From Bacteroidia bacterium (GTDB taxonomy: Bacteria > Bacteroidota > Bacteroidia > NS11-12g > UBA9320), in assembly GCA_965216465.1 (NCBI GenBank), contig CBDCFW010000005.1:672001-736000 (forward strand): 64,000 nt of DNA. Direction: 5' to 3'. Under the pieces are notes generated by a model, which did not search any database, was not told the origin of the DNA, and saw only the letters and a program-made list of their open reading frames with translations. The translations under genes were made by a program, and so were the position numbers. Of this stretch, positions 38,200 to 48,885 are shown piece after piece (position 1 is the first letter of the stretch; every line of letters starts with the position of its first letter).

Positions 38200-39771
38200 T
38201 TATTCGATATACACACGTGCTGAATACAAAGCGTTATCAAGAATAGTTTTTAAGAAATATGTACCGCTTGAAACATCGCTCGGAATTGACAATTTTTGAG
38301 CTGACCCTTCCAAATTCCACTCACATACCTTACGTCCATATACATCCCATAACTCTACCGTACTTGGAATTTGTTCTTCGAAATTGATATTCAACTCGGT
38401 CGTTGCTGGGTTAGGATATACAGTCATTTGGTTAGCTGTCATTTGCTTGAAACCAGCAGTTTCTTCATCTTCCCAATGCATTACTCTAGCCACTGTTACA
38501 TTATACGCATCGTGATTTGGCAAAGCCGTTGTTCCTGCAATTACAAGATTGCCATCAGCTTGCATAGCTGCTGATTTAAAGTGAATGTAAGTTGGTGTAA
38601 GACCTAACTCATAGTTTACATCTCCTTTGGTTCCGAAATCAGGGTGCGCTGTTCCTTTTTCAGTAAGTTTCAACACATAAACATCGTCATAACTCTGACC
38701 AGAAAGACTTCCTGTACAAATTATTTGGTCGTCCTTATCAACAAATAGTGAGTTTAAATACACCCCATTCATCGTTCCAATATCTGATCCCATTACACCA
38801 TCGGTTCCAAACGTTTCATCCGGAACTCCTTGAGCACTGAATCTAAAAATCATTCCATTTCTATCTGGGTTTTGCCCTTCAGAACCAATAGCAACAATTC
38901 TTCCTTGGTTGTCGTACTTAACGTCCATAATTGTATTGAGCCCGCTTCCTTCATTATACACGAAGTATCCAGCACCATCAAAAGTTGATGTTTTCAGCCC
39001 AAATTGATTCAATTTTACAATTGCTCCATATTGAATATTGTTAGCGTAAGAAACTCCGCCAATAATGAAACTTCCATCGTCTCCAACATCTAAACTTGTT
39101 ACTTGATCTGATCCTTTAATATCAATAAGGTTACTGCCACTGCTTGCAAAAGAAGTTACCAATGCACCTGAAGCACTAAACTTGAATAAACCAAAGTTGG
39201 TTCCTTCGTCGTCAGTAGAAACTGAAGCAGCGATATAAAATGAATTTTGGAACAATTCAATATCACGTGGTCTGCACGATTTATCATTTCCAGCATTAAA
39301 AAAGGTATATCCTTTCGAGCCTTCACCAAAGCTTTGATCTAACGATCCATCTTTGTTTAGACGCATAATAAAGCCTTTAGTAACTCCATTTTTTAAAGAA
39401 CTTCCAACTAAAATGAGCTTCTCATCCGATAGTTCGAGCATGGCATGAGCTTGATCAGCAGATCCATCTTGAATATCATAAGTCCAATATCCTCCATCAC
39501 CAAAATTCAGGTCAGTTGAACCGTTTGAATTTAATCGGGCTACCAGAATATCATTTCCTCCCGACTGAATAATCGTTCCGCAAAAAACAATTTTGTTGTT
39601 TTGATCAACGATAACGTCATTTAGGTACTCTGCACTATCATCTTCGAAATTGGTGTAAGCAAAGCCGTCGGAGCCAAAGCTGTTGTCAATATCTCCAAGT
39701 TCTTGAGCAGATAACGAAGCGGCACCGATCATTATCAGAAAGGCAAATGTTAGTTGTAATAATTTGTTCAT
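38200..39771 (-). CDS. Delta-60 repeat (beta-propeller) T9SS cargo protein
   Basis: Repeated RLNxxGSxDxxFG and DGxLVIAG; VYPNPA CTD. Confidence 0.9.
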   Translation of the reverse strand: MNKLLQLTFAFLIMIGAASLSAQELGDIDNSFGSDGFAYTNFEDDSAEYLNDVIVDQNNKIVFCGTIIQSGGNDILVARLNSNGSTDLNFGDGGYWTYDIQDGSADQAHAMLELSDEKLILVGSSLKNGVTKGFIMRLNKDGSLDQSFGEGSKGYTFFNAGNDKSCRPRDIELFQNSFYIAASVSTDDEGTNFGLFKFSASGALVTSFASSGSNLIDIKGSDQVTSLDVGDDGSFIIGGVSYANNIQYGAIVKLNQFGLKTSTFDGAGYFVYNEGSGLNTIMDVKYDNQGRIVAIGSEGQNPDRNGMIFRFSAQGVPDETFGTDGVMGSDIGTMNGVYLNSLFVDKDDQIICTGSLSGQSYDDVYVLKLTEKGTAHPDFGTKGDVNYELGLTPTYIHFKSAAMQADGNLVIAGTTALPNHDAYNVTVARVMHWEDEETAGFKQMTANQMTVYPNPATTELNINFEEQIPSTVELWDVYGRKVCEWNLEGSAQKLSIPSDVSSGTYFLKTILDNALYSARVYIE

Positions 39772-39870: not shown

Positions 39871-39955
39871 ATTTTTCTAAGGGTAAAAGGAAGAATTACT
39901 GGGTTAAACTCCTCAAATTTCAAGATTTGAATAAATCGAATGATTAAATTTGTTC

Positions 39956-41890
39956 ATGCCCATTGCTAGGATAGCCACACTATTTCTGTTCATTATCAGC
40001 GGATTACACGCTGTTTTTGCACAAGAAAATCCACAGGAAATAATCAATCGAGGTGTTGAAGACACGCTTACGGTTCAAGCCTATGTACAACTTAGTGTAA
40101 AGTCATTAAGTAAAAGCTACGACTCATCGTTGTTTTATGCTCAAAAAGGAAAAGAAATTGCACAACGCATAGACGACCAAAAAGGATATCGTGCCAGCCT
40201 AATGCGTATGGGAAATGCCTACATGTTTAAAGCGGAATACGACAGTGCTCATAATACCTATATGGAAGTTTTAGCCCTGAACGAATCAATGGGCGATTTT
40301 CTTGAAATGGGTAAGGTATATAATAACCTAGGGTTAATGTATCGCTATAAAGCCGACTATCCTACATCGCTAGAATACTTCATAAAATCACTTGAGTTTA
40401 AACGGAAGTATGGAACAGACATTGACGTTGGAGTTGGCTACCAAAATATTGGAATTGTGTTTGCCATTCAACGTGAATATGAAACGGCTGAAAAATACTT
40501 GCTTGACGGCCTTGAATTGTTTCGAAAAGGTGGAGATTCAACAAAGTACCACTCTGCATTGATAGATGTAAGCTCGATGATGCGTGAACAGGGTAAAATG
40601 GAGGAAGCCATCCAAGCTCTTAAAGAAGCATACGAATACAATCGCCGAAGAGAAAACACTACACAAATGGGCATTTGCATCTATAACATGGCTTTTACCA
40701 GCTACTTAGATGATGACTATACTGCTGCAATCAACTACTACCTTCAAGCAAAAGATATTTTTGTGCAGTTAGGTAATAGAGTTCGAATAACCGGTTGCAA
40801 CATAAGGTTGACGATTTGTTATAAGGAGACCGGACAACTCAAAAAAGCAGAACGAGTAGCACGAGAAGGCCTCGAGATTTTCAGTGAATTAAACTCTCCT
40901 GTTCAGCAATACACATTACAAGAAAGTCTTGCTGATGTACTAGCAGCTCAGGGAAAATATAAAGAAGCTTATTCGTATCGCGTGAAGCACGATCATCTCA
41001 AAGACAGTATTACAAGCGAAGAGCATCAAATTAAAATCGCTGAGATGCAAGCGAAACATGAAAATGAGGTTGACAAAAGAAAAATTGCAGAGTTAACTGC
41101 TGAGAACAAACAGAATCAGCTTCAAGCTCGTAAAAAAGAAGTTCAAACCTATATTCTTTACGGAGCCGTTTTGCTTATATTAATTTTAGCCATAATGTTC
41201 TACTTCTTGGCTGTAAATAAGAAGAAGGCTAATGATGCACTCCGAGAGAAAAACAAGGTAATTGAACATTCGTTAGACGAAAAAGAAGTCTTGCTTCGTG
41301 AGATTTATCATCGTGTGCAAAACAACTTACAGTTCGTTTCTAGCTTGCTGAATCTGCAAAGTAGAAGAGTCGAAGACGAAGGAACCAAAAACGTGCTCAA
41401 AGAGTGTAAACTTCGGGTCCAATCAATGGCTTTAATTCATCAACGTTTGTACAAAGAAGAAAGTTTAAAAGGCATAAGCTTTGAAAACTACATCAAGAAT
41501 TTGGTTCAATCACTTCAAGAGTCCTATCAAATTGAAGAAGGTCGTATAGCCACCGTGTTTGAAATAGACGACATCTTAATGGATATCGACACAGCCATCC
41601 CTATGGGGCTGATACTGAATGAATTGATTACGAATGCCTACAAATATGCCTTCCCCGATTTTTCAAAAGGAGAGCTTCAAATTCGTTTAAAACAAGAAGA
41701 TGGTCTAACTTTGAGTGTAGCTGATAATGGCATTGGCTTGCGAGAAGATTTCGACATCAATAAAAGCAACTCGTTTGGGTTAAAGTTGGTGCGATCACTT
41801 GCCAAAAAGCTAAACGCTGATGTACAATTTTCTAGCGAAGGGGGAACACAAGTTAAACTTATTATTAAAGAAAATAATCTGGCTCAATGA
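39956..41890 (+). CDS. TPR-sensor histidine kinase (HisKA_2 type)
   Basis: TPR repeats, TM segment, EIYHRVQNNLQ, NELITNAYKYAF, DNGIG, SFGLKLV. Confidence 0.9.
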   Translation: MPIARIATLFLFIISGLHAVFAQENPQEIINRGVEDTLTVQAYVQLSVKSLSKSYDSSLFYAQKGKEIAQRIDDQKGYRASLMRMGNAYMFKAEYDSAHNTYMEVLALNESMGDFLEMGKVYNNLGLMYRYKADYPTSLEYFIKSLEFKRKYGTDIDVGVGYQNIGIVFAIQREYETAEKYLLDGLELFRKGGDSTKYHSALIDVSSMMREQGKMEEAIQALKEAYEYNRRRENTTQMGICIYNMAFTSYLDDDYTAAINYYLQAKDIFVQLGNRVRITGCNIRLTICYKETGQLKKAERVAREGLEIFSELNSPVQQYTLQESLADVLAAQGKYKEAYSYRVKHDHLKDSITSEEHQIKIAEMQAKHENEVDKRKIAELTAENKQNQLQARKKEVQTYILYGAVLLILILAIMFYFLAVNKKKANDALREKNKVIEHSLDEKEVLLREIYHRVQNNLQFVSSLLNLQSRRVEDEGTKNVLKECKLRVQSMALIHQRLYKEESLKGISFENYIKNLVQSLQESYQIEEGRIATVFEIDDILMDIDTAIPMGLILNELITNAYKYAFPDFSKGELQIRLKQEDGLTLSVADNGIGLREDFDINKSNSFGLKLVRSLAKKLNADVQFSSEGGTQVKLIIKENNLAQ

Positions 41891-42609
41891 AAAGCGATAT
41901 TAAGATACTAATTGTCGAGGATGATCCAATCATTGCAGAGGATCTGCAAGCATATATGGATGACTTTGGGTACATCGGCTTAGAGCCAGCGAGCAGTGCA
42001 GACGAGGCATTAAAGCGAATCAAGCAAGAACAACCCGACTTGTGTTTGCTCGATGTACATCTAGCGGGCGAAATAAACGGCATTCAACTGGCCAAATTAA
42101 TTCAAGCCGAATGGAATATTCCGTTCATCTTTTTAACGGCATTCAATGATCGATCAACCATAGATCAAATTAAGCAAATTGGACCCGCTGCCTACTTGGT
42201 TAAACCGGTTGAAGAACGCAATCTGCAAACAGCAATTGAGCTTGCTTTGGCCAAAAGAGAAGAGCAAGCTGAAGTAGCGGAAGAACTACATCATGCCCAG
42301 GATGCAATTTTCATTAAAATTAAAGATCAGCTGGTAAAATTTGAATTCTCAGATATCCTTTACTTTGAGGCTTATGACAACTATGCATTTCTTCACACCT
42401 CAAAGAAAAAGCATATTCTCAGCTCGTCATTAAAGCAATTAGAAGACAAACTTCCCAATCGCTTATTCTTACGTTCACACCGCTCATACATCATTAATCT
42501 GAGTAAGGTAACACGCATTTTTACCAACTACCTGACCATAGGCACTGTTGAAATCCCAATAGGCAAAAAGTACAGATCAATCCTATTAGAGCACATCGAT
42601 ACCCTCTAA
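41887..42609 (+). CDS. REC-LytTR response regulator
   Basis: ILIVEDD, LLDV, KP; YFEAYDNY, FLRSHRSYIINL. Confidence 0.95.
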   Translation: MKSDIKILIVEDDPIIAEDLQAYMDDFGYIGLEPASSADEALKRIKQEQPDLCLLDVHLAGEINGIQLAKLIQAEWNIPFIFLTAFNDRSTIDQIKQIGPAAYLVKPVEERNLQTAIELALAKREEQAEVAEELHHAQDAIFIKIKDQLVKFEFSDILYFEAYDNYAFLHTSKKKHILSSSLKQLEDKLPNRLFLRSHRSYIINLSKVTRIFTNYLTIGTVEIPIGKKYRSILLEHIDTL

Positions 42610-42630
42610 ATTGTTCGCACGATTTATTAT

Positions 42631-42701
42631 TTCATTCACTTAGATTTTTAGTCAGTTGACCAAAATTCGCTAGTTACTCTCTTAGTAAGGGCTAAGCTTT
42701 G
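42631..42701 (+). promoter_or_regulatory. LytTR-type regulated promoter B
   Basis: Gap-free match to 39870-39800. Confidence 0.7.
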
Positions 42702-42746
42702 TTGTATAAAACAAAACCTCGAATACAACAATTATCCTAACCATAT

Positions 42747-42804
42747 TAACCCCCTAACCCCCTAACCCCCTAACCTCCACCCACTAACCCCACCATTGAC
42801 CCCC
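42747..42804 (+). repeat. Telomere-like C-rich tandem repeat (TAACCCCC)x3 plus degenerate copies
   Basis: Perfect copies at 42747, 42755, 42763; degenerate TAACCTCC, TAACCCC and TGACCCCC, ending at ATG 42805. Confidence 0.95.
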
Positions 42805-43068
42805 ATGAGAGTAGCATCATTGAGAATAACGCCGAATCCAGCTCCAAAAGGTAGTGAGGTAACTGTAAGCTTATTTAATGAGTTTCAGGAAGAACTCTTA
42901 CTTGAGCTTTGCGATTACAGAGGATCTGTAGTCAATGCCTTGGGTTCGTCAAACGATCGAGTTGTGATCAAACATCTTGAAACCCGAGGTATAAAACCTG
43001 GAACCTATATACTCCGAATTAGCGGAAAGCGAATTCGAATAAATCACAAATTTCAAATCAACTTTTAA
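42805..43068 (+). CDS. Stand-alone T9SS type-A CTD protein (87 aa, no signal peptide)
   Basis: LRITPNPA...VTVSL...LELCDYRGSVV...LETRGIKPGTYILRI...KFQI covers the whole CTD pattern; in-frame TAA at 42763 blocks N-terminal extension. Confidence 0.75.
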   Translation: MRVASLRITPNPAPKGSEVTVSLFNEFQEELLLELCDYRGSVVNALGSSNDRVVIKHLETRGIKPGTYILRISGKRIRINHKFQINF

Positions 43069-43080
43069 ATCTTATAAAAA

Positions 43081-44250
43081 ATGAAACACTTAAAAACATT
43101 AAGTATGGCACTCGCTATTTTTCTACTTGTATTTACGCAGAGTGCGTGTCAGGATGGCCTTTCTGAACTGGGAGTAAATCAAGATCTTCCCACTTTTGAT
43201 ATGGATGCATTCGAGCAAAACATTCAAGACTATGTAAATTTCGGTGGCGACCAACCTGTTGGGTGGGCATATGTAATCAGCAAAGATGGACTCTTATCTC
43301 GATGGGGATCATTTGGTGACGCAAGAACAGCTGCAGATAATCAAGTAGATTTTACTTTAAACAAGGAAATCAATATTGCGAGTATTTCAAAGTTTTATAC
43401 TGCAATTGGTGCACTTCAACTTATTGAAGCTAATGGATTAACGATCAACAGTAAAATTGGACCATGGTTGCCAAACTCGTGGTCTCAAGGGCCAGGAGTG
43501 AGCAATTTAAGTTTTAAGGATTTGCTTAAACACGAATCAGGATTAAATTCAATCAACACCCGTTTTGATTCTACACTTGGATACACCGGGCTTAGATCGT
43601 GTATAGCTGGTGGTGTTGTGAACCCAAAAACACGCACTTATCTCAATGTAAACTTCGCTTTATTTCGAGTATTGATTCCATCGCTGTGGGCAGAAGCTGG
43701 AGGACCAAACACTATCGACATAGAAAATGATCAAAACACACAAATTGCCTATCTGTGGTATATGCAACAGCATGTATTTGGACCCATTGGACTAACTTAT
43801 GTTAATTGTTCTCCTGAAGACCGAAACACTGCGACCTTGTATTACAACGTGAGTGACCCACAGAACAACACAAACGGCACTTTCTACAACCACTGGTCAA
43901 ACAAAAGTGGTGGTGGAGGATATTTTATGACACCATTAGAAATTGCGGCTGTAAATGCTTATTTCAACAATACCAATGTTTTGCTATCAGATGAAATGAC
44001 TGACTTGATGAAAGAGCATCGTATGGGAATGGATGTTGCCTCTGGAATGGAAGAACATGGTGAATACTATGGTAAAGGAGGTTCTATTTCAAACACTCCA
44101 GGACAAGGCATCTTAGGTCAAATTGCGGTCTTTCCAATTAACGGAGTTGAATGCACGGTAATCATGAATACGCAAGGAGTGAATTTGGATGCTCCGAACA
44201 ATTCGCTATCAGCACTCATTTACAAAGCTTATAATAACGCATGGGACTAG
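43081..44250 (+). CDS. Lipoprotein serine hydrolase (beta-lactamase family)
   Basis: Lipobox QSAC; IASISK (SxxK), LLKHESG, YLN (YxN), GKGG. Confidence 0.9.
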   Translation: MKHLKTLSMALAIFLLVFTQSACQDGLSELGVNQDLPTFDMDAFEQNIQDYVNFGGDQPVGWAYVISKDGLLSRWGSFGDARTAADNQVDFTLNKEINIASISKFYTAIGALQLIEANGLTINSKIGPWLPNSWSQGPGVSNLSFKDLLKHESGLNSINTRFDSTLGYTGLRSCIAGGVVNPKTRTYLNVNFALFRVLIPSLWAEAGGPNTIDIENDQNTQIAYLWYMQQHVFGPIGLTYVNCSPEDRNTATLYYNVSDPQNNTNGTFYNHWSNKSGGGGYFMTPLEIAAVNAYFNNTNVLLSDEMTDLMKEHRMGMDVASGMEEHGEYYGKGGSISNTPGQGILGQIAVFPINGVECTVIMNTQGVNLDAPNNSLSALIYKAYNNAWD

Positions 44251-44297
44251 CCACTTCGCAACTAACCTTAATAACCATTACTAGCCCCTAACCCCTC

Positions 44298-44325
44298 AAA
44301 GGCCCGAACTAATCGGGTCTTTTTT
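44298..44325 (+). terminator. Intrinsic terminator
   Basis: GGCCCGA-ACTAA-TCGGGTC followed by T6. Confidence 0.8.
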
Positions 44326-44474
44326 ATTATGGCTTTTTTTAGAATTTGTCAAAAACATTCACCCTCAAAAATTAGCTATTCCCGTAGTTCTGCCTCCCCT
44401 TCGCCATATACTTCTAGTAACTTCTACTAAGGCTCCCAATATTTGTTTCCAACAATAACTTAACCGAATAAGTC

Positions 44475-45929
44475 ATGTCGATCAAGAAAATAACCGCCGT
44501 CTATCTTTTCTGTATGGGAATACTCTTTCCTTTTACGACTACAGCCCAAGATACCATGCAAATTCACCTAAACTCTGGATTTCATGCACATGAAAATGCC
44601 AAGATTGGATTGTTTGGAAGCTTGATCAATGATGACCACTTGACATCTACAAATCAGCAAATTGAAGGACAGCTTTATTTGGTTTCAAACAGTAATCAAC
44701 TATTAGGTGGAGATTCTTCAATTCTCGTTGACACTTTAGTTGTTAAAAATTCGAACGGCGTTGAAGTGCAGCTTGAATTAATGGTGGCTTCAGAAGTTCA
44801 GTTTGAGGCTGGTAATTTGGAAACGAATCGAGTGGATAGCAGCACTGAGTTTGTACATTTCTTAGATAACGCCAGTTATTCAGGTGAATCAGACAACAAA
44901 CATGTGAACGGAACGGTTCGAAAAACGGGTGATGATGCGTTCATATTCCCTATTGGAAATGGAAACTACATTCAACCTATCGCAATATCATCTCCAGCTC
45001 AACAAAACGACCACTTCACCGCATTCTATCGTCAGGAAAATGCAAGCTCGATAGGATATTCAACCAGTTCAATTGACTCCAATTGCGGCGGATCTCCTGT
45101 AGTGGTAGATGTAAGCGAAAATGAGTACTGGAATCTTGAACGTACCGGAGGAAACTCAAATGTTGAAGTAACATTATATTATGACAACCATAGCAGCGTA
45201 AACACACCTTCTGAATTGGTGGTGATGAGTTGGAACGGAAGCGAATGGCAATCTCATGGAAATGGAGGCACAACTGGCACCAATTTAGATGGGACTGTAA
45301 TATCGGGAACAGGATGTGGGACATCAGGTACTGCATCAACGGTCAGCATTTTTGGTCCATTTACTTTAGGTGGAACCTCTGCCACAGCAGTCCCTGTTGA
45401 ACTTATTCTTTTTGAAGTTGCCAAATACAACAATACAAAGTCGCTGCTAACATGGGCCACTGCTTCAGAAATAGAAAACAGCCACTTTGTGATTGAGCAA
45501 AGCCATGATGGAATACAATTTAGTGAACTGGGCATCGTACAAGGTGCCGGTTACTCGAATCAAATCATCAATTACAGTTTCATAGACCATCAGCCTGAAG
45601 AAGGAATTAACTACTATAGACTGAAACAAGTGGACTTCAGTGGTGCGTATGAATACACCGAAATTAGAAGTTTGCTTTTCGAAAACGGAAGCGGTTTGGT
45701 AACAGCTTACCCCAACCCTGCTCGTGAACATGTAACCGTTGATGTTTCTACAATTTCTCAAAGAGGAGAGGCTCTACAGCTTGAGGTGTATAACCAACTG
45801 GGAGCCCTGATTTCATCAACCAATGTTCCAGAGTCTGCGAACAAATTCAACTTGGATTTAACCGGCTGGAATTCTGGCATATATCACATAAGAATTAACA
45901 ACCAAACCATTAAAATTATAAAGAATTAA
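44475..45929 (+). CDS. T9SS type-A cargo protein
   Basis: Signal peptide; HVNGTVRKTGDDAFIFPIG, EYWNLER; VPVEL...WATASE...YYRLKQVDF; AYPNPA CTD. Confidence 0.9.
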   Translation: MSIKKITAVYLFCMGILFPFTTTAQDTMQIHLNSGFHAHENAKIGLFGSLINDDHLTSTNQQIEGQLYLVSNSNQLLGGDSSILVDTLVVKNSNGVEVQLELMVASEVQFEAGNLETNRVDSSTEFVHFLDNASYSGESDNKHVNGTVRKTGDDAFIFPIGNGNYIQPIAISSPAQQNDHFTAFYRQENASSIGYSTSSIDSNCGGSPVVVDVSENEYWNLERTGGNSNVEVTLYYDNHSSVNTPSELVVMSWNGSEWQSHGNGGTTGTNLDGTVISGTGCGTSGTASTVSIFGPFTLGGTSATAVPVELILFEVAKYNNTKSLLTWATASEIENSHFVIEQSHDGIQFSELGIVQGAGYSNQIINYSFIDHQPEEGINYYRLKQVDFSGAYEYTEIRSLLFENGSGLVTAYPNPAREHVTVDVSTISQRGEALQLEVYNQLGALISSTNVPESANKFNLDLTGWNSGIYHIRINNQTIKIIKN

Positions 45930-45957: not shown

Positions 45958-48885
45958 ATGAAAAAGTTAATATTTACAATGATTATTAGTTTCACGCTTG
46001 CATTTGGAAGCACAAACTCAGCATTTGCCCAAGTAAAAATTGGAGCAAATCCCGACACCATTCACAGCAATATAATTCTCGAGTTAGAGAGTACAAGCAA
46101 GGGTGTATTGCTTCCTCGAATGACAAGTTCAGAAGCATTGGCAATCACCAATCCACCTGATGGAATGTTATTGTACAGCACAACTGACAGTGGATTCTAC
46201 TATTACCACAACAACAATTGGTATGGGTTTATTCAAAAATTACGACTCGACTCCGACACCTTATCTATAAGTGACAAAGAAGGATACATCATATTACCTG
46301 ATGCCGATAGCACAAACGAGTTGCAAACATTATCCATTGATAACGACACAATCTTCTTATCTTCAGGAGGTTATGTTGAATTATTAGATAATGATGCGAC
46401 AAATGAAATTCAGACCATCAGTCTGCAAAACGACACGATTTTTCTATCTGATGGAGGAAGAATTGCACTGCTTGACAACGATAGTACTAACGAGATTCAG
46501 ACCATTAGCTTAGTGAATGACAGCATCTTTTTAACCGATGGAGGAGCCATTTCGCTAACTGATTTTGCTAAGGAAATCAATGATCTACTTGATGCTATTT
46601 CAGATAACACGAACATCTTTTTAGGAGATAGTTCTGGGACCAACAATACAGGAAGCCACAATACCGCCACTGGACTTTATGCCCTATATAGTAATACCGG
46701 CGGAAACAGTAACACGGCCGTTGGATATGAAGCTTCACGTGCAAATACGATCGGAATAATGAACACCGTGACTGGATTTCAAGCGATGTACAAAAACTTC
46801 TCTGGGAACAACAATACAGCTACTGGAAGTCAAGCTATGTACGAAAACACTACGGGATCAGAAAACACTTCAGTAGGTTACCAGTCGATGTACAACAACA
46901 CTATCGGAACTCAGAATAGTGCCGTTGGTACCTATGCACTTTACAGCAATACAGATGGTGCAAAAAATACAGCGGTGGGATACTCATCAATGGGATATAA
47001 TACCACTGCCGACAACAATACTGCTCTTGGACATAAATCGTTAGGATCTAATACGATTGGAAGCAACAACAGTGCCGTTGGAACCGATGCCTTGAACAAG
47101 AATACACAAGGGGGAAACAACTCTGCATTTGGTGCAGATGCCATGTTTAGTAATCTTATTGGACTTGATAATGTAGCACTTGGTAATTCTGCCCTGTACA
47201 GCAATGAGTATGGCTCAAATAACGTAGCAGTTGGTAGCGAAGCTATTTACAATGGATCAGCGGCGAGTAGAAATACTGCAGTTGGCCATAACTCGATGCG
47301 AGCAATCACTACGGGAGGTTATAACACAGCTCAAGGATATCGCTCGTTATACTCAAATACTACAGGTCACCGAAATGTGGCAAGTGGCTACGAAAGCGTG
47401 TATAGCAATACAACAGGTCAACATAACACAGGATCAGGCTACAGAGCGCTTTATTCAAACGTTGATGGCGATTCAAATACAGCAGTTGGTACTCGATCTC
47501 TATATACCAACTCGTCAGGTACGGGAAATACCGCTGTTGGTGCCAATGCCTTACAGACGAACAACGAAAGCTACAACTCTGCTTTTGGTTATAACGCGCT
47601 GAAATCTAATACAATTGGTGAAGGAAACACCGCGGTTGGCGCACACACACTTCAAACCATCACTTATGCTGATTATCTAACAGCAGTTGGATATGGAGCA
47701 TTGAAAGAAAACACTACAGGATATCGAAATGTGGCAATAGGTTACGAAGCAATGACTTCTAATACCACTGGAAATTCGAATGCTGTAGTTGGTTTTAAAG
47801 CCTTAACCTCAGCCACAGGATCTGAAGGGAATGCTGTTCTTGGAGGATATGCTATGTATTCAAACGTATCGGGGTCTTACAATACTTCTGTAGGAATGAG
47901 TAGTTTATATACCAATTACAACGGCTGGAATAATACAGCAATTGGATGCCAAGCCATGTATTACAACTTTGGAGGAGACAATAATGTTGCGATGGGATAC
48001 CAAACTCTGATGTCGAACACGGGCGACTACAATACTGCAGTGGGTGTACACGCCCTTAGAAATAGTGGTAACAAAGAATTCAACTCTGCGTTTGGTTATG
48101 ATGCACTTAAAGGAAACGATGGTGATGGTAATACCGCCATGGGATATAAAGCACTTGAAGACAATGAAGGTGATCATAACACCAGTATTGGTATATATTC
48201 GATGCAAGCAAACACCACAGGTAAGTTTACAGTTGCAGTGGGTTATAAAGCTGGCGACGAAAGCACAAACAACCGCTACTCGGCTTATTTAGGAGCTGCT
48301 GCTGATAATTCCACTGCTTCTAGCTACCAGCACGTGGTTGCTGTAGGTTATGGAACAAAAACAACAGCCAGTTATCAGGTTCGTATTGGTAATAGTCAGA
48401 TCACCTCGATTGGTGGACAAGTAGGATGGACAACATTAAGTGATGGTCGATTCAAAGAAGGTATCGAAGAAGATGTTGTTGGAACCGATTTCATCATGAA
48501 GTTAAAGCCGATTACTTATTATGTAAATACCGATAAGGTAGATGAGTATTTGAATACAGAAACTCCAGAAAAAAGATCCTACAAAGTTCGTCAGTCTGGT
48601 TTTATCGCGCAAGACGTTGAAGCTGCGGCAAAAGCCAGCGGATATGACTTCAGCGGTGTTGATACCCCGCAAAATGAAAACGACTATTACGGTTTGAGAT
48701 ACTCAGAATTTGTAGTGCCGTTGGTAAAAACGGTGCAAGAGCAACAAGCTTTAATCGAACAACTTAATTCATCAAAGCAAAATCAAGAACTTGTAATTCA
48801 AGAAATGCAATCTCAACTCGATGGGCTAAAAAAGGCTCAAGAAGAGATGCACGAAGCTATGCTACTCCTAAAAGAGTCGCTTTAA
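45958..48885 (+). CDS. Tail-fibre-like trimeric adhesin with peptidase S74 autochaperone domain
   Basis: Signal peptide; KGVLLPRMT; TNEIQT repeats; many NTAxGxxAL beta-roll repeats; SDGRFK...GFIAQDVE...YGLRYSEFVVPLVK plus coiled coil. Confidence 0.9.
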   Translation: MKKLIFTMIISFTLAFGSTNSAFAQVKIGANPDTIHSNIILELESTSKGVLLPRMTSSEALAITNPPDGMLLYSTTDSGFYYYHNNNWYGFIQKLRLDSDTLSISDKEGYIILPDADSTNELQTLSIDNDTIFLSSGGYVELLDNDATNEIQTISLQNDTIFLSDGGRIALLDNDSTNEIQTISLVNDSIFLTDGGAISLTDFAKEINDLLDAISDNTNIFLGDSSGTNNTGSHNTATGLYALYSNTGGNSNTAVGYEASRANTIGIMNTVTGFQAMYKNFSGNNNTATGSQAMYENTTGSENTSVGYQSMYNNTIGTQNSAVGTYALYSNTDGAKNTAVGYSSMGYNTTADNNTALGHKSLGSNTIGSNNSAVGTDALNKNTQGGNNSAFGADAMFSNLIGLDNVALGNSALYSNEYGSNNVAVGSEAIYNGSAASRNTAVGHNSMRAITTGGYNTAQGYRSLYSNTTGHRNVASGYESVYSNTTGQHNTGSGYRALYSNVDGDSNTAVGTRSLYTNSSGTGNTAVGANALQTNNESYNSAFGYNALKSNTIGEGNTAVGAHTLQTITYADYLTAVGYGALKENTTGYRNVAIGYEAMTSNTTGNSNAVVGFKALTSATGSEGNAVLGGYAMYSNVSGSYNTSVGMSSLYTNYNGWNNTAIGCQAMYYNFGGDNNVAMGYQTLMSNTGDYNTAVGVHALRNSGNKEFNSAFGYDALKGNDGDGNTAMGYKALEDNEGDHNTSIGIYSMQANTTGKFTVAVGYKAGDESTNNRYSAYLGAAADNSTASSYQHVVAVGYGTKTTASYQVRIGNSQITSIGGQVGWTTLSDGRFKEGIEEDVVGTDFIMKLKPITYYVNTDKVDEYLNTETPEKRSYKVRQSGFIAQDVEAAAKASGYDFSGVDTPQNENDYYGLRYSEFVVPLVKTVQEQQALIEQLNSSKQNQELVIQEMQSQLDGLKKAQEEMHEAMLLLKESL

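Follow-up and report, generated by a model that had tools for sequence, protein, structure and literature searches.

In this article, I discuss an open reading frame (ORF) of 87 residues that encodes a type IX secretion system (T9SS) sorting domain and nothing else, found in a stretch of 64,000 nucleotides from a Bacteroidia bacterium (GenBank assembly GCA_965216465.1, 3.23 Mb in 6 contigs; contig 5, CBDCFW010000005.1, positions 672001-736000), hereafter called the window. The C-terminal domains (CTDs) of T9SS cargo are regarded as pure address labels, which act in cis, after export through Sec, and are then cleaved off. The ORF in question has neither an export signal nor a cargo, and it lies behind the genes for a sensor histidine kinase (HK) and a LytTR response regulator (RR), with a lipoprotein hydrolase gene following it. 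As far as comparative sequence evidence can carry the point, this CTD-only ORF is a real selected gene and not debris, since its frame is kept in all five genomes of its clade and its omega (the ratio of nonsynonymous to synonymous change) is like that of the CTDs of long cargo proteins. The explanation that I find probable is a domesticated type-A CTD miniprotein, which lost its signal peptide and passenger once, is controlled by the neighbouring regulator and most likely resides in the cytoplasm. The genes of the locus, in window coordinates, are these:

39950..41890, + strand: sensor histidine kinase (HK) with TPR repeats, HisKA_2 and HATPase_c (Pfam)
41887..42609, + strand: response regulator (RR) with REC and LytTR DNA-binding domains (Pfam)
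42805..43068, + strand: the gene discussed here, CTD-only and signal-less, 87 aa (ORF, profile matches, AlphaFold2)
43081..44250, + strand: lipoprotein serine hydrolase of beta-lactamase fold (PF00144), 389 aa, second gene of the unit (profile match)
44298..44322, + strand: terminator-like hairpin followed by a T run, end of the two-gene unit (hairpin search)
44475..45929, + strand: signal-peptide protein with a CTD of its own, 484 aa, called P484 (Pfam)

A gene that is all sorting domain

The ORF runs from the ATG at 42805 to the TAA at 43068, and an in-frame TTG at 42796 would give 3 more residues. The profile TIGR04183 (Por_Secre_tail) matches it with 26.1 bits against a cut-off of 23, placing residues 8-83 on profile positions 1-69 of 72, and the translation contains the motifs ITPNP, CDYRGSVV, GTYILRI and HKFQINF; PF18962 gives 25.7 bits, slightly below its cut-off of 27, and the DUF7452 profile PF24249 finds no match on the ORF. 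An earlier note, made from the letters of this DNA alone, had described the ORF as a type-A CTD only, and the match above cut-off across the whole length, together with the named motifs, bears this out: all 87 residues are CTD, leaving no passenger domain. The protein begins 7 residues ahead of the domain, and there is no room for a signal peptide because the stop-to-stop frame extends just 13 codons upstream. The same note was also right that this is not the mis-started tail of a longer protein, the spacer of 195 nt between the stop of the RR gene and the ORF (42610-42804) lacking ATG and GTG alike and being closed by stops in each of the three frames, and right again in placing a CTD-less lipoprotein hydrolase of the beta-lactamase family 12 nt downstream of the ORF's stop, as shown by a PF00144 match (E 5e-14), a lipoprotein-type Cys23 behind a hydrophobic leader and no CTD match in the profile search. 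Neither the repeat in the leader nor the start of the ORF is an assembly slip, because an independent contig from run X1 spans 41900-42971 with 0 differences; across the contigs of runs X1-X3 neither variants nor a different number of repeat units came up, those from X2 and X3 being fragmentary copies gapped at the repeat.

From a family alignment of 17 rows, AlphaFold2 (AF2) predicts a 7-strand sandwich with a mean predicted local distance difference test (pLDDT) of 93.4. The best structural matches of this predicted fold include solved CTDs, at VIA Z scores of 10.6 for the CTD of PorZ (5m11), 10.4 for mirolase (8qb1), 9.9 for PorU (6za2) and 9.6 for NucA within the translocon complex (8glk_D); Ig-like MG domains of complement C3 and C5 reach equal VIA Z scores, and the CTD match is no better than such a generic one. 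In a word-based protein search, the single ORF recovered no candidate but itself at near lengths (1 candidate), and none of the 89 longer candidates matched it. The 3.23-Mb genome contains 140 TIGR04183 matches, of which that in the ORF alone lies in an open frame not exceeding 100 aa, the next shortest open frames having 131, 148 and 160 aa. These three (G000:C6:1002139-1002357, 48.1 bits; G000:C2:102549-102749, 41.0 bits; and G000:C1:33372-33587, 32.7 bits) are observations in their own right, each being a possible miniprotein of signal peptide plus CTD, and 140 type-A CTD matches in 3.23 Mb amount to a very large T9SS secretome for the size of the genome.

Related loci and the loss of a cargo

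Nine orthologous loci in total came out of searches that covered the order, the family, a sample across the class and every species-representative genome. Among 60 relatives, the sole match to the ORF better than E 6e-6 lies in genome G031 (E 7e-16), where the ORF aligns end to end with the last 87 residues (296-382) of a cargo protein at 39% identity (E 6e-20). This protein of 382 aa has three matches to DUF7452 (PF24249, E 8e-72) between its signal peptide and its CTD, and its gene sits 145 nt behind a LytTR regulator that is 50% identical to that of the window over its full length (45% when aligned only in part) and a TPR kinase that is 41% identical. In the AF2 model of the G031 protein, the signal helix takes up residues 1-21, the all-beta passenger 26-283 and the CTD 300-382, and Met296 falls just before the CTD in the linker (287-299), which is disordered; a linker Met is found in 4 of 4 signal-peptide-bearing members of the G031 subfamily, and it is at this place that the short ORFs begin. 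When the G031 protein was used as the query against the window, only its CTD part matched (residues 296-377). The DUF7452 passenger gave no informative structural match, the CTD part alone being matched, and a search of the window's genome with PF24249 found nothing, a weak negative in that the control search also matched nowhere. The nine loci have the following gene orders, in which short is the CTD-only gene, long cargo the DUF7452-CTD protein and P975 a protein of 975 aa that is described with the neighbouring genes below:

Window and G075: HK-RR-short-hydrolase-P484-P975
G079: HK-RR-short-P484
G087: HK-RR-short-P484-P975
G078: P484-HK-RR-short
G031 and L095: HK-RR-long cargo
G056 and G120: HK-RR-long cargo-hydrolase

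Kinase orthologues of 29-65% identity occupy the same position in the 8 related loci, and RR orthologues of 47-73% identity are present in the same 8. The long cargos of G031, G056, G120 and L095 have 380-401 aa and combine a signal peptide, DUF7452 and a CTD. P484 is a neighbour in all five short-form loci; in G075, the hydrolase orthologue is 73% identical to that of the window and shares an ATGA overlap with the short ORF. Because a long cargo holds the same place behind an orthologous HK-RR pair, the ORF is the leftover of a cargo gene, and the gene orders show an ancestral unit of kinase, regulator, DUF7452-CTD cargo and hydrolase.

In the maximum-likelihood tree of HK+RR, a branch with 100% bootstrap parts the 5 short loci from the 4 long ones, and the topology of the CTD tree is identical. 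Short forms come from five species-level genomes in three genera of one family, and long forms from two families, so that the simplest history suggested by these trees is a single loss, ancestral to the short clade. In the mechanism that I propose, the Sec signal peptide and the DUF7452 passenger (about 295 codons) would have been lost once, in the ancestor of this three-genus clade, and the start of translation would have moved to the Met in the linker just ahead of the CTD of the long forms.

Short relatives also exist beyond these loci. P0012, P0008 and P0016 lie on large contigs (10.6 kb, 95 kb and 19.4 kb, respectively), and P0034, a relative of 93 aa, was found on 8 contigs of up to 505 kb; the gene calls of the NCBI and JGI pipelines include P0034 as well as the G079, G087 and G078 copies. 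P0004 is found on 800-nt contigs and groups with a long form at 94% support, and the ESM Atlas holds clusters of 84-88-aa Por_Secre_tail proteins (61-130 members), which may be gene fragments. A scan of metagenomes with the regulator alignment yielded 79 loci, in none of which the regulator has a CTD of family-level match next to it; L168, one of these loci, gives a weak match (E 8e-4). L151 was set aside, its 168-aa frame running off the edge of the locus, 2.9 kb from a non-orthologous regulator.

A predicted fold kept, an address eroded

The TIGR04183 scores of the 9 signal-less forms (14.9-33.7 bits) do not overlap with those of the 7 forms with a signal peptide (34.0-43.2 bits; six long forms and P0006), in a comparison whose 16 rows are not phylogenetically independent. 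G075, P0008 and P0016 no longer have the PNP motif, the D-x-x-G-K/R-x-V motif is gone from 5 of the 5 genome copies, with a one-residue deletion relative to G031, G056, G120 and L095, and hydrophilic C-terminal extensions occur in 4 of the 9 signal-less forms as against 0 of the 7 exported ones; neither net charge nor isoelectric point separated short from long forms. Read from the sequences, this pattern fits a fold that is kept for a new use while its secretion features are no longer policed. P0006 is worth recording beside it, being a protein of 139 aa from a metagenome and of the same family, in which about 30 linker residues join a signal peptide to a CTD of 43.2 bits: it looks like a second, independent loss of the passenger in which export and the full CTD score were retained.

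Could the short protein instead serve the T9SS in trans, whether as decoy, as competitor or as adaptor, at PorM/PorN, PorV or the translocon, reaching the periplasm by an unrecognised route or being released by lysis or in vesicles? The genome is rich in T9SS cargo, with its 140 TIGR04183 matches, the family includes the exported P0006, and the short forms have kept the CTD fold and the GxY, which I take to be motif D and which is invariant in all of them, as is the hydrophobic core. Motif D of CTDs is reported, in a preprint, to be needed for binding to PorM (10.1101/483123). Yet the short forms with readable DNA have no Sec, Tat or lipoprotein signal, nor room for one, the exported P0006 stands at the full 43.2 bits when the signal-less forms reach only the scores given above, and in several of them erosion has reached the PNP, the G-K/R motif and the precise C-terminal end, all of which makes an action in trans unlikely.

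Purifying selection on the short gene

Within the short clade, the identity between regulators is 55-73% and between kinases 43-65%, and synonymous differences are saturated in every pair (pS, the proportion of synonymous sites that differ, is 0.75-0.92 in RR and HK), so that pairwise dN/dS by NG86 was not computable. Despite this divergence, each of the five short ORFs has kept its frame open between the same ends, their stop-to-stop frames extending 2-28 codons upstream, when shuffled sequences of the same composition remain open in only 0.1-1.4% of trials per ORF. The proportion of nonsynonymous differences (pN) in the short ORF is 0.35 against a pS of 0.80 between G079 and G087, and 0.47 against 0.78 between the window and G075; with pN so far under pS, what is constrained is the protein rather than the DNA. 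Under a codon model, omega comes to 0.041 in the short forms, 0.052 in long-form CTDs and 0.02-0.03 in the RR, values that are rough, all divergences being past synonymous saturation, and an omega of 1 is rejected (2dlnL = 96, with kappa fixed at its free estimate). The ratio of terminal branch lengths between the CTD and HK+RR trees is 1.9-4.6 in short and 0-3.1 in long forms, with no clear acceleration.

These results sort out what the earlier note had offered as explanations. It had suggested a remnant of a deleted cargo gene, and the part of this that concerns origin stands, the ORF aligning with the C-terminus of a long cargo, while the part that concerns decay falls, since the relaxed selection that the note had named as telling is not seen when the omega of 0.041 is set against the 0.052 of long-form CTDs. 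Its other suggestion, a free CTD with a function of its own, is favoured by the evidence of selection, and among the roles that it listed a cytoplasmic one fits best. A partnership with the hydrolase is improbable: the hydrolase is not an obligate partner, because it is lacking in 3 of the 5 short-form loci.

Selection on a frame need not mean selection on a product, and the short gene might be a translated leader, kept open only for ribosome cover or coupling of the downstream gene, with an inert peptide. The gap of 12 nt to the hydrolase in the window, the ATGA overlap in G075 and the position of the sole terminator-like site, 3' of the hydrolase, all suit such coupling. However, a leader would need an open frame only, which accounts neither for an omega of 0.04 nor for the conservation of residues in the core of the sandwich; moreover, the next gene is 54 nt away in G079 and 187 nt away in G087, and in G078 it is convergent, with nothing downstream to couple to. 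Because the G078 copy ends its unit, the short gene is not merely a leader, and I would give this explanation only a slim chance. Slimmer still is the chance of an inert remnant, a 5'-truncated pseudogene that resembles a gene only because the long forms happen to have a Met just before the CTD: the homologues in more distant relatives are indeed the C-termini of 380-401-aa cargo, truncation of a protein with the linker Met (4 of 4 in the G031 subfamily) would leave an ATG-led frame, the TIGR04183 scores are below those of exported forms and P0004, grouping with a long form, is maybe an independent truncation or a fragment, but the frame is open with the same ends in five lineages despite synonymous saturation (the chance of remaining open being 0.001-0.014 per lineage), an omega of 1 is rejected at an estimate of 0.041, pN is well below pS and the confident predicted fold is kept.

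The spacer and its putative regulation

The DNA around the ORF has four features to be noted:

42635..42660, + strand: direct repeat TTCAC-N16-TTGAC with a 21-nt pitch, putative site of the LytTR regulator
42693..42701, + strand: TAAGCTTTG, candidate Bacteroidota-type -7 promoter box
42738..42804, + strand: G-poor leader with three tandem CCCCCTAA units at 42750-42773 (sequence inspection)
42716-42766 and 44253-44297, + strand: copies of a direct repeat, imperfect and about 45 nt long, on either side of the short ORF and the hydrolase

Direct repeats at a pitch of 21 nt are what LytTR domains bind in known systems. The spacer that follows the RR gene contains the pattern TTNAC-N15-17-TT[CG]AC in 9 of 9 loci (the window, L085-L091 and L095), compared to a mean of 0.06 loci in 2000 shuffles, the pattern having been derived from the same nine loci on which it was tested. 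TTCAC-N14-17-RTTSACC is not enriched genome-wide (5 matches vs 7 for the reversed control) and occurs 2 times in the window vs 0.7 expected, so the argument for the repeat is solely one of positional conservation across loci. P484 is preceded by further repeat pairs in G075 and G087, and by single boxes in the window (TTCACC, 44358-44363) and in G079; these TTCAC-like boxes are a candidate operator of the LytTR regulator and would mark a small regulon.

The spacer measures 148 nt in G079 and 149 nt in G087, both with short forms, and 145 nt in G031, with a long form; the distance from box to start is alike in short and long forms, and the deletion would therefore have left the promoter and leader in place. 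The candidate -7 box rests on the consensus TAnnTTTG, which I assume to be the relevant one, and TTTG is found at a comparable position in the spacers of other loci. Transcription of the short gene would proceed from the old cargo promoter, under the TPR kinase and LytTR regulator, by way of the repeats with the 21-nt pitch.

The leader of the window is a local peculiarity. It exceeds the leaders of the other short-form loci by 46-128 nt, and its additional part (42738-42804), with 1 G in 67 nt, is specific to this genome, being missing from the 8 related loci, and has no predicted RNA structure (-1.6 kcal/mol, z 0.32); the 80-nt leader has no second copy in the genome. The core of the repeat of about 45 nt, CCCCTAACCCC, occurs genome-wide at these two places only (3 matches, two of them overlapping), and the upstream copy runs on into the three tandem CCCCCTAA units. 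This bracketing repeat, which is absent from G075 despite the identical gene order, could be a duplicated regulatory segment or a recombination scar.

What a probably cytoplasmic sorting domain might do

Without an export signal, the protein would stay in the cytoplasm, where it could therefore not be a secretion tag and would work as a small Ig-like binding module; a cytoplasmic role is the best fit, given the lack of a signal peptide and the eroded match to the T9SS model. One possibility, which I put forward tentatively, is that the short protein is an output or feedback component of the two-component system, its binding partner being either some cytoplasmic product of this regulon or one of the signalling proteins. 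A narrower version, in which the exapted CTD would be the cytoplasmic feedback or output module of the very system of periplasmic TPR sensor kinase and LytTR regulator that once controlled its parent cargo, I regard as doubtful. A complex prediction with the short protein, kinase residues 430-646 (the cytoplasmic part) and the regulator gave a score of 0.01 (mark 0.32), which counts neither for nor against such binding. If the narrower version were true, expression of a T9SS cargo would have become linked to an intracellular protein of CTD fold, and this would be, to my knowledge, the first CTD with a function outside secretion.

Several observations weigh against the domesticated, cytoplasmic CTD that I favour. 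The start of the ORF lies in a C-rich context (gacccccATG), compared to an A-rich one for the hydrolase (ataaaaaATG), and A-rich start contexts favour initiation in Bacteroidota. The short form is also rare and patchy, being present in 5 of the 66 genomes of the family and in 0 of the 27 other genomes searched of the window's own genus, and the kinase has no close orthologue in the 24 same-genus genomes searched with it; given this distribution, most relatives can do without the short ORF, and horizontal movement of the locus is possible. P0004 may be a fragment, the lower profile scores could be plain partial relaxation, and the shared ancestry of the 16 rows and the roughness of the omega values blunt the comparisons made above. 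Since the GxY is kept, recognition by the T9SS may be possible if the protein ever reached the periplasm, and I know of no CTD for which a cytoplasmic partner has been described.

Nevertheless, a CTD that has neither export signal nor cargo, and that is under purifying selection in three genera, would act as a protein in itself, most likely in a compartment where no part of the T9SS sees it, and it offers a natural test case for other binding by the CTD fold. It also calls for caution in annotation, as a protein labelled a T9SS type A sorting domain-containing protein is not always secreted. The TPR kinase, the LytTR regulator, the repeats with the 21-nt pitch, the DUF7452 cargo or its CTD relic, the hydrolase and P484 together would form an undescribed compact regulon.

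The neighbouring genes

The kinase begins with a leader at its N-terminus, continues with the TPR repeats and a single membrane helix near residue 400-425, and ends with HisKA_2 and HATPase_c; its gene overlaps that of the regulator by 4 nt. On the other side of the short ORF, the hydrolase carries SISK at residue 101 and YLN at residue 187. The two genes share a strand, with the 12-nt gap and no terminator between them, the hairpin at 44298-44322, 3' of the hydrolase, being the sole terminator-like site on the + strand, and the short ORF and hydrolase are presumably co-transcribed in this genome, yet the hydrolase is absent from 3 of the 5 short-form loci.

Three side observations concern the proteins around this unit. 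In the hydrolase, Cys23 is followed by Q-D-G-L-S-E, and the orthologues read C-K-E-E-E, C-Q-E-D and C-K-E-K-D (43081-43160 in the window), which presumably resembles the acidic surface-export signal of Bacteroidota lipoproteins; given these acidic residues, the hydrolase may be surface-exposed without a CTD. P975, the 975-aa protein at 45958-48885, contains a long run of short N/T/S/G/A-rich repeats and ends in Peptidase_S74, the 'chaperone of endosialidase' (PF13884, E 1e-7), an architecture that is tail-fibre-like, and it is kept beside P484 in G075 and G087. Divergent from the kinase gene, at 38200-39771 on the - strand, lies the gene for a 523-aa propeller protein of delta-60 repeats (DUF5122) with a CTD, which holds the same place in G075 at 63% identity.

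Comparison with known systems

The domain family is known, whereas a signal-less, cargo-less member under selection is not described in the literature searched, in which titles and abstracts likewise offered no description of signal-less or cytoplasmic CTDs, of DUF7452 or of this regulon. With the type-A CTDs of RgpB, PorZ, mirolase and NucA, the window ORF shares its family, the predicted 7-strand sandwich, the PNP and the GxY, and it differs from them in being a whole protein, without signal peptide or passenger. Its direct parent is the DUF7452-CTD cargo (PF24249 plus PF18962), as found in G031 and in P0019 (MBR9917083.1, labelled 'T9SS type A sorting domain-containing protein'), with which it has in common the position after HK and RR, the promoter-proximal repeats and a CTD that is 39% identical over 87 residues, but from which it lacks residues 1-295, that is the signal peptide, the all-beta passenger and most of the linker. 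P0006 is likewise a passenger-free CTD gene and differs by its export signal, so that its product can meet the T9SS. Another small stand-alone beta-sandwich of Bacteroidota is DUF3244 (PF11589; 3sd2 and 4g5a, from Bacteroides thetaiotaomicron), which the predicted fold matches with a Foldseek TM of 0.68; the G087 copy reaches 25.6 bits with PF11589 (cut-off 25), and the window ORF has no match to it at E<=1.

For the proposed link to signalling, the closest parallel is HdrRM and BrsRM of streptococci, where a modulator gene lies beside that of a LytTR regulator, the modulators being membrane proteins and the regulators LytTR-only. The window likewise has a small gene directly after that of a LytTR regulator, and it differs in having a classical kinase with a REC-LytTR regulator and in a small protein that is predicted to be a soluble beta-sandwich; the analogy is one of how the two might work, and for feedback only.

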